Origin: a virus
Strand: one strand, 5' to 3'
Length of the DNA: 64,000 nucleotides
Virus record (IMG/VR): IMGVR_UViG_3300047550_006186
The stretch's first letter is position 1; every line of letters starts with the position of its first letter. The notes under the pieces are model-generated. The model saw only the letters and a program-made list of their open reading frames with translations, did not search any database and was not told the origin of the DNA. Of the stretch, positions 54,865 to 55,237 are shown piece after piece. The position numbers and the translations under genes were made by a program.

Positions 54865-55237
54865 AATGGAAAAAATAATAGAAATACGAGCTGCCGAAGG
54901 TGGCCAAGATAGCAAACTGTTTGTCACAGATTTACTCCGTGCCTACAAAAAATTGGCTATCAAATTGGGTTGACTGATCAGTCAAGAACAGCATGTGCCT
55001 GGCACAAGCAGCATTTGTGTGTCTGGCAAAAATCTAGACAAACTCAACATGGAAGCTGGTGGTTTGCGAATGCAACGTGTGCCACCCACAGAAAAACGTG
55101 GACGAGTTCACACCAGCACTGTGACTGTGGCTGTGATTGATCAATCACAATCTCACTCTTTTGAGATTGATCCCAACGATCTGCAAGTGGAATGGTTCAG
55201 TGGCACAGGCAAATTATTATTAGGATTTTTTAGATAA
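54865..55237 (+). pseudogene. prfA: Class-I peptide chain release factor (RF1-like) remnant split over two frames, GGQ motif absent
   Basis: Frame 1: MEKIIEIRAAEGGQDSKLFVTDLLRAYKKLA (RF EIRAG.GG.EA.LFA.DL.RMY motif) then TGA; frame 2 (ORF 54995..55237): LRMQRVPPTEKRGRVHTSTVTVAVI...DLQVEWFSGTGK (RF1 [24 protein letters not shown]...FRSSGAGGQ) but SGTGK replaces SGAGGQ. Confidence 0.5.

Follow-up and report, generated by a model that had tools for sequence, protein, structure and literature searches.

The window analysed in this work, a 64,000-nt stretch of the IMG/VR virus record IMGVR_UViG_3300047550_006186, contains a short gene for a protein resembling peptide chain release factor 1 (RF1) that is interrupted by an in-frame TGA, lacks the part encoding the GGQ motif and adjoins an open reading frame (ORF) for an HNH endonuclease. 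The RF1-like coding region begins with the ATG at 54866 and ends with the TAA at 55235–55237, and its single-frame translation reads MEKIIEIRAAEGGQDSKLFVTDLLRAYKKLAIKLG*LISQEQHVPGTSSICVSGKNLDKLNMEAGGLRMQRVPPTEKRGRVHTSTVTVAVIDQSQSHSFEIDPNDLQVEWFSGTGKLLLGFFR*. The following parts of the locus can be distinguished:

54866–54970, plus strand: codons 1–35, MEKIIEIRAAEGG...KLG, the start of release factor (RF) domain 2 without domain 1, as placed by the NCBIfam RF1 alignment
54971–54973, plus strand: in-frame TGA, codon 36, in the context GGT TGA CTG, at a Trp position of RF1 and probably the conserved recoding site of the family
54974–55213, plus strand: codons 37–116, the rest of the codon-recognition domain up to SGTGK, with 55213 as the last homologous base
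55082–55090, plus strand: PPT tripeptide (the PxT 'anticodon' of RF1) inside RMQRVPPTEKRGRVHTS, invariant in the family alignment
55214–55237, plus strand: unrelated tail LLLGFFR and TAA, with 7 codons read into the inserted cassette
55214–56093: inserted cassette of about 0.88 kb, standing in place of the last 357 nt of the RF gene and the spacer (371 nt of the ancestral locus)
55220–56032, minus strand: HNH homing-endonuclease ORF (PHROG 655 and Pfam HNH), 270 residues as listed, with the likely start at M12, position 55999
56094–57500, plus strand: saccharopine/homospermidine-dehydrogenase-like gene, the right-hand boundary, where synteny with relatives resumes

With the TGA read through, the product matches the Pfam family PCRF (PF03462) with E = 2.1e-19 and 70.5 bits (cut-off 24) at profile positions 103–194 of 194. 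Among the NCBIfam models RF1 (TIGR00019/NF001859) fits best with 99.5 bits at model positions 107–225 of 347, compared to 40 bits for RF2, and as the alignment begins only at position 107 RF domain 1 is missing. The RF1 equivalog cut-off of 400 bits is reached neither by the window copy nor by an intact relative (188.6 bits), which itself matches RF1 entries of the PDB with up to E = 2e-39. RF1-like segments had already been noticed in a sequence-only reading of this DNA, and the profile match behind them is real. That reading described the pieces as lying in two adjacent frames with an apparent +1 geometry; a TGA does separate them, but the frame of 54866 is also that of 54995, so that the TGA at 54971–54973 is an in-frame stop and there is no frameshift geometry.

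The residues with which RF1 reads the stop codon (Q, P, T, H and T within RMQRVPPTEKRGRVHTS) are kept and are invariant across the family alignment, which predicts a specificity for UAA and UAG. The RF-1 hydrolysis domain (PF00472) with its GGQ is absent from the window copy and present in relatives, and comparison with their SGTG[AK]GGQHRNK confirms the earlier observation that SGTGK stands here in place of the GGQ motif. The closest intact relative, locus L004, shares 78% DNA identity with the window over 383 nt (54832–55213) and its protein is about 88% identical over the aligned C-terminal 48 residues, a similarity far above the level of chance.

A conserved TGA in a family of short RF1-like genes

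At E ≤ 1e-5 a protein search gave 1432 relatives, and most of the top 120 are proteins of 175–190 residues with PCRF and RF-1 domains that cover only the last 55–62% of the query and begin just past the TGA position. On their contigs a 35-codon ORF of the same frame comes before such proteins (for example in L001–L004), and as judged from this arrangement the 175–190-residue database entries are shown to be genes that gene callers have split at the TGA. In the same way, RefSeq annotates the member at 2471–3175 of the Variovorax sp. WDL1 plasmid 2 locus (L188, NZ_LR594690.1) as a 56-residue 'hypothetical protein' and a 'peptide chain release factor-like protein', split at its in-frame TGA, and the gene that comes next encodes a SecB-like chaperone. 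The intact genes encode about 225–235 residues, begin at RF domain 2, keep Q..PPT..HT and SGTG[AK]GGQHRNK and end with ..LW, and an intact relative scores far higher with the NCBIfam model for RF1 (189 bits) than with those for RF2 (94 bits) and, lower again, PrfH (44.1 bits; TIGR03072 cut-off 166.65). The window copy fits this layout with its ATG, 35 sense codons (M..IEIRAAEGG..), a TGA at the Trp position and a frame that continues behind it, and lacks the complete ORF of about 225 residues, its homology stopping at 55213. In IMG/VR, 551 viral contigs encode a relative, many of them 100–368 kb long, and the best-scoring 80 of these loci were analysed.

The 81 loci from IMG/VR and Logan with a QRVPPTE motif, which represent 69 distinct phage genes with pairwise identities of 0.45–1.0 (median 0.64), all carry exactly one in-frame stop, and without exception this is a TGA. 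For 78 loci the gene start could be assigned, which makes the TGA codon 36 in 77 of them and codon 37 in the remaining one; in the alignment it falls into a single column for all 69 genes, with 36 invariant protein columns downstream of it. The same position is occupied by Trp in the solved RF1 structures of T. maritima and S. mutans and in the canonical RF1 of the Candidate Phyla Radiation. Moreover, L186 (997–2328) carries two short RF1-like genes in tandem, and the second one, an intact family member, has TGG at the TGA site. A 'W' in some database homologues was also considered as independent evidence for Trp and was rejected because these proteins are code-4 gene calls of a TGA in the DNA; the evidence for Trp rests therefore on the solved structures and the TGG-bearing gene of L186. 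Across these genes the TGA is, as far as comparison of sequences can tell, a conserved recoding signal of the family and not damage. Its earlier interpretation as a sign of decay does not hold, given an invariant codon in 69 distinct relatives and a strongly conserved protein downstream of it.

The recoding appears to be specific to the RF1-like gene. The 59 long ORFs of the window end in TGA (25), TAA (22) or TAG (12), and its four tRNA genes (Leu-GAG, 38323–38399; Leu-CAA, 45710–45786; Gln-TTG, 45818–45893; Gly-TCC, 48442–48516) include neither a tRNA-Trp nor a suppressor. In 84 related loci 332 tRNAs lie beside the gene, and UCA, CUA and UUA anticodons are absent from all of them. As TGA is a normal stop in the window and a suppressor tRNA is absent, genetic code 4 (TGA as Trp) very probably does not apply, and the link to stop-codon reassignment proposed in the sequence-only reading finds no support. 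A more distant, domain-1-less RF1-like gene from a different branch is found in a 634-kb uncultured phage (L085, LR745206.1, 1501–1839); Phe stands at its counterpart of the family's TGA site and two in-frame TGAs lie at other Trp positions, which is consistent with this huge phage using TGA as Trp.

Loss of the GGQ half at the HNH cassette

Base 55213, which completes the Lys codon in SGTGK, is the last one with DNA homology to L004 and L003, and exactly at this 55213/55214 junction the relatives continue with GGN GGN CAA, the codons for GGQ. Homology to L003 resumes at 56106 within the start of the saccharopine-dehydrogenase-like gene, which in L003 begins 14 nt after the RF gene. The cassette in between has a guanine-plus-cytosine (GC) content of 0.33–0.37 compared to 0.40–0.48, and its only ORF, encoding the HNH protein on the strand opposite to the RF gene, overlaps the unrelated tail of the RF remnant. 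This ORF matches PHROG 655 'homing endonuclease' with E = 1.8e-26 and, marginally, Pfam HNH with E = 2e-4 and 21.8 bits (cut-off 21.4). It is absent at the same locus in the intact syntenic relatives L003, L004 and the P0004 contig, no second HNH copy was found in the window or the fetched loci, and the HNH protein was not found in IMG/VR. At 54500–56400 Rfam gave no match at E ≤ 1 to a group I or II intron or to any other known RNA.

Neither a six-frame search for GGQ nor tblastn detected a GGQ domain elsewhere in the 64-kb window, which thus holds no full-length RF with an intact GGQ, and a metagenome scan at the Joint Genome Institute (JGI) with the C-terminal half of L004, based on exact 8-residue patterns, gave no close match for this half, the best one showing 67% identity. 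In the retained 115 codons the ratio of nonsynonymous to synonymous substitution (dN/dS) is 0.09 against L004, and extra stops or frameshifts are missing; as decay is not seen in this part, the loss should be recent relative to the split from L004. The window copy looks like a recently truncated, catalytically dead family member, and with the GGQ half for peptidyl-tRNA hydrolysis gone it cannot make an active release factor. The sequence-only reading was thus right about the missing catalysis, now explained by the replacement of the GGQ half, and about the adjoining endonuclease, which lies exactly at the break; its description of a decaying gene does not fit the codons that are retained. Five database relatives (P0003, P0006, P0009, P0013 and P0021) also diverge at or just after GGQ, and the homology of the first tandem gene in L186, which sits beside the intact copy, ends after GGQNRN, where AT-rich sequence (GC 0.34) takes over; this hints at the GGQ site as a recurrent break point.

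Taking these results together, we assign a probability of roughly three in four to the reading that 54866–55213 are the first 116 codons of a short RF1-type factor gene, recoded at a UGA, whose GGQ half has been replaced by an HNH cassette.

Frameshift sites in bacterial relatives

From bacterial genomes we fetched and classified 80 loci. In 33 of them the N-terminal 30–40 codons lie in one frame and the remainder in the +1 frame, and the junction consists of a GGAGG-like sequence, 3–6 nt and then CTT TGA C (18 loci), CTT TGA G (4) or CTT TAG C (11). Bearers of this cassette include Myxococcota, Thiobacillus and Achromobacter (loci L139, L167 at 3995–4015, L180, L175 and 29 more), and the sites of Thiobacillus denitrificans (GGGGT CAT CTT TGA C) and Achromobacter anxifer (GGGGC TAT CTT TGA C) are in essence that of E. 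coli prfB. Thiobacillus denitrificans DSM 12475 and Pyxidicoccus fallax DSM 14698 are examples of strains with such cassettes. With CUU at the Trp position, the recoding site of the cassette lies one codon from the phage TGA. Eight further bacterial-genome loci have the phage-type TGA and seven have an in-frame TGA further downstream, six of the latter a single one 11–15 codons on and the seventh (L122) two, giving it a code-4-like look; five short genes are uninterrupted and 11 genes are ordinary full-length RF1. The neighbours of the bacterial relatives are mostly without Pfam families, one being a YqaJ recombinase, which suggests mobile elements and nothing more.

The window copy has no prfB-type +1 site at its TGA, where the sequence is AAA TTG GGT TGA CTG, the downstream ORF is in frame 0 and the +1 frame meets a TGA at once. 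The prfB-like frameshift that the sequence-only reading had considered and rejected is therefore absent from the window copy itself, but bacterial and prophage relatives do carry prfB-type cassettes at the neighbouring codon. Whether the short RF1-like factors of phages, prophages and plasmids as a group are gated by recoding, by UGA read-through in jumbo phages and by prfB-type +1 frameshifting including CUU UAG C in bacteria, is in our estimate evenly balanced.

Context of the UGA and proposed mechanism

Of the 69 genes 54 have A, 10 have G, five have C and none has T directly after the TGA, which we read as a leaky context, and the genes' own terminator is TAA in 64 of 69. In the window the stop is followed by C (54971–54974), a weak UGA C context. 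The nine codons after the TGA show the lowest synonymous diversity (0.32 compared to a gene mean of 0.56). This stretch ranks 3rd–4th of 223 among gene pairs that are 60–85% identical and is unremarkable among pairs below 60%, so that the synonymous constraint is confined to clades. With regard to RNA structure, the window has one conspicuous element:

54970–54985: 16-nt perfect palindrome TTGACTGATCAGTCAA containing the TGA, present in this genome only and not in relatives

Within it the predicted pairing probability of the TGA is 0.97, a pairing for which no enrichment is seen among the relatives. Single-sequence folds suggested a hairpin that would contain or follow the UGA, but this idea was dropped after further tests: RNAalifold found no consensus structure on 50 sequences, the sliding minimum-free-energy profile dips to z of about -1.2 with similar dips elsewhere in the gene, and pairing with a 3' partner is rarer for the UGA (0.34) than for control codons (0.42). 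Neither a selenocysteine insertion sequence (SECIS) nor another Rfam element was found around the UGA.

The RF gene of most relatives lies inside dense tRNA arrays, and tRNA genes occur within 3 kb of it in 56 of the 84 related loci, with up to 18 per locus. A permuted (two-piece, betaproteobacterial-type) tmRNA gene abuts the RF gene in L015 (3660–4173) and L079 (3639–4123), one lies near it in L007 (470–687), and another in L073 (6361–6760) likewise abuts or neighbours it. Of seven tRNA-Trp(CCA) genes next to the RF gene four have an unpaired 27:43 position (C.U in three, G.A in one), the others being normal or G.U at this position. The four are located just upstream of the RF gene:

L006, 2718–2791: tRNA-Trp(CCA) with unpaired 27:43
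L010, 1480–1553: tRNA-Trp(CCA) with unpaired 27:43
L011, 2910–2982: tRNA-Trp(CCA) with unpaired 27:43
L043, 1509–1584: tRNA-Trp(CCA) with unpaired 27:43

An unpaired 27:43 in tRNA-Trp(CCA) has been described to raise UGA read-through in E. coli (PMC13092985), and a phage tRNA-Trp of this kind might possibly help the read-through here, which we regard as a lead and not as a result.

From the comparison of the genes we infer a read-through as Trp and a termination-sensing role. In the proposed mechanism ribosomes would usually terminate at codon 36 through RF2, and a minority would insert Trp via a near-cognate tRNA-Trp(CCA) of the host or the phage and complete the factor. The output of factor would be low and would rise when RF2-dependent termination at UGA becomes limiting, making the gene a sensor of termination capacity with the logic of prfB that works by read-through instead of frameshifting. 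The factor would be part of a phage translation island, and it may be speculated that with RF2 saturated the additional RF1 activity would serve UAA sites in its place.

Several points weigh against this interpretation. The reading residues are of the RF1 type and predict UAA and UAG, so that a UGA gate would report on the RF2 of the host and not on the factor itself, and a regulatory purpose is something that we infer. Folding, RNAalifold and the comparison of pairing revealed no conserved stimulatory RNA structure, and the synonymous-site constraint vanishes between distant clades. The restriction to the best-scoring 80 of 551 viral loci may under-sample variants with TGG. Finally, the genome is represented by 64 kb, and looking elsewhere for a relocated 3' half or a second copy relied on exact 8-residue patterns and was not exhaustive.

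Alternative explanations

The least unlikely alternative is a gene that is split and not destroyed, so that a functional factor would still be assembled although the HNH lies in an intron or the 3' half is encoded at another place. Homing endonucleases often sit in introns or split phage genes, the motif interrupted here is the most conserved one, a typical homing target, and several database relatives diverge at or just after GGQ as well. However, an intron signal is lacking around the HNH, which is encoded on the opposite strand, no 3' exon precedes the next gene, where homology resumes at 56106, and neither the 64 kb nor the JGI contig scan contains a GGQ-domain sequence or a close match to it, respectively. 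As a break inside the GGQ loop would in addition not yield two foldable halves, we consider this explanation improbable. Only slightly less credit can be given to the idea that the TGA is a genuine terminator and that the family is made as a 35-residue peptide and a protein of about 185 residues started downstream. This is how gene callers annotate the family, but the downstream starts they call vary between genomes from 3 to 32 codons past the TGA, the codons directly after the TGA are conserved in frame as protein, and both parts together form one RF domain 2, which makes separate polypeptides quite improbable.

A use of TGA as Trp (code 4), either in general or for this gene class, with the RF1-like gene in a code-switch module as in TGA-recoded gut phages, would agree with the occurrence of RF1 genes in TGA-recoded Jade phages (Borges et al., preprint) and with the several in-frame TGAs at Trp positions in the huge-phage homologue of LR745206. 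It is very unlikely, as TGA is the commonest true stop of the window, whose genes are tightly packed, as no opal-suppressor tRNA was found in the window or the 84 related loci, and as each relative has a single TGA at one and the same codon. An ordinary decaying pseudogene, with the TGA as a nonsense mutation and the loss of GGQ as further erosion, would account for a truncated gene that cannot be catalytic; since the TGA is invariant in 69 distinct, otherwise intact relatives and the retained part combines its low dN/dS with the absence of further lesions, this explanation is extremely unlikely. Least of all do we believe in a UGA for selenocysteine read via a downstream SECIS. The roughly 30 nt of reduced synonymous variation after the UGA and the long hairpin starting at the UGA into which some relatives fold could be taken in its favour, but neither an Rfam SECIS match nor a consensus structure or a conserved stem-loop 3' of the UGA was obtained, the UGA shows no preference for pairing, clades differ in the sequence downstream of it, and homologues have Trp, Phe, Tyr or Leu at the site and not Cys.

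Relation to known systems

The UGA-recoded short RF1-like gene resembles prfB, the gene of RF2, in that an in-frame UGA stands near the start of a class-I RF gene, its context being weak (UGA C for the window copy), and that synthesis of the factor would need a failed termination; bacterial relatives even carry the same Shine-Dalgarno-like CUU UGA C cassette. In contrast to prfB, the window copy and all phage relatives keep the downstream ORF in frame and have no slippery CUU codon, so that read-through is required and not frameshifting, and as the protein is of the RF1 type UGA is not its own cognate codon. A domain-wide survey from 2025 described prfA as free of programmed frameshifting and the prfB motif as free of TAG (PMC12421855), whereas 11 of the bacterial relatives have CUU UAG C.

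The nearest viral precedent is the class-I factor of Mimivirus and Megavirus, whose internal stops are passed by frameshift and read-through, seen as autoregulation in the bacterial style (Jeudy et al. 2012, PMC3521657). Here, too, a virus-encoded termination-factor gene must pass internal stops by recoding, but that factor is of the eRF1 type, belongs to eukaryotic viruses and needs two events, whereas the short RF1-like factor is of the bacterial RF1 type, belongs to tailed phages and would need a single UGA read-through. Bacterial-type release factors are also encoded by Lak, crAss-like and Jade phages (RF1/RF2; Borges et al.), but these phages reassign TAG or TGA genome-wide and have their RF genes in standard code, while the window uses the standard code and only its RF gene has an in-frame TGA. 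PrfH (RF-H, paired with RtcB2) likewise has no RF domain 1 and a similar length; the short RF1-like family differs from it by its score (44 bits compared to 189 for RF1) and by keeping the PxT motif, and no rtcB neighbour was seen beside the short RF1-like genes examined.

As to the tRNA-Trp(CCA) with a 4-bp anticodon stem, a UGA at a Trp position would most simply be read by tRNA-Trp(CCA), but the window has no such tRNA and the association rests on seven tRNAs. The HNH ORF behaves as known for free-standing HNH homing endonucleases, which split phage genes or replace them, in lying at the most conserved codons of its host gene, in being absent from close relatives and in its lower GC content. 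It differs from them as the cassette is not a clean insertion, having replaced 371 nt, and as no second copy or homing-site pair was found.

A full-text literature search found no description of the family or its recoding, which is weak evidence given the incomplete coverage of the search. The family of recoded, domain-1-less RF1-like genes is thus apparently undescribed, and its gene-specific UGA recoding and the prfB-type frameshifting of its relatives appear to be neither annotated nor described. To our knowledge, the textbook case of recoding control in release-factor synthesis is known only for RF2 (prfB). If our interpretation is true, RF1-type factors of mobile elements use the prfB trick in two forms, read-through and frameshift, and the CUU UAG C sites would be the first autoregulatory frameshift of an RF1-type, UAG-sensing kind. 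The amount of a phage-borne termination factor would depend on the termination state of the host, and hundreds of database entries would be wrongly split into a 35-residue 'hypothetical protein' and an N-terminally truncated 'release factor-like protein'. The window copy is broken, yet it shows a homing endonuclease landing on GGQ-coding sequence.

Genomic neighbourhood

The synteny with the closest relatives holds around the RF remnant in the order gamma-glutamyl cyclotransferase-like gene, RF gene, saccharopine-dehydrogenase-like gene, PP-loop ATPase and major-vault-protein-like gene. At the DNA level, megablast gave no match for the phage among the INPHARED phages. Apart from the dehydrogenase-like gene, the following syntenic genes flank the remnant:

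52682–53119, minus strand: gamma-glutamyl cyclotransferase-like gene
57716–58420, plus strand: PP-loop ATPase

Further to the right, an ORF of 843 residues (58961–61492) encodes a major-vault-protein shoulder and repeat domains with a weak SPFH/Band 7 match; it is unusual for a phage and is conserved in L003. The window also contains a DNA polymerase III alpha fragment of 599 residues with NTPase and finger domains only, possibly a split gene (8126–9925), a nicotinamide phosphoribosyltransferase of the NAMPT type (22791–24206) and a full sigma-70 factor (26987–28411), and these three genes point to a large phage genome.

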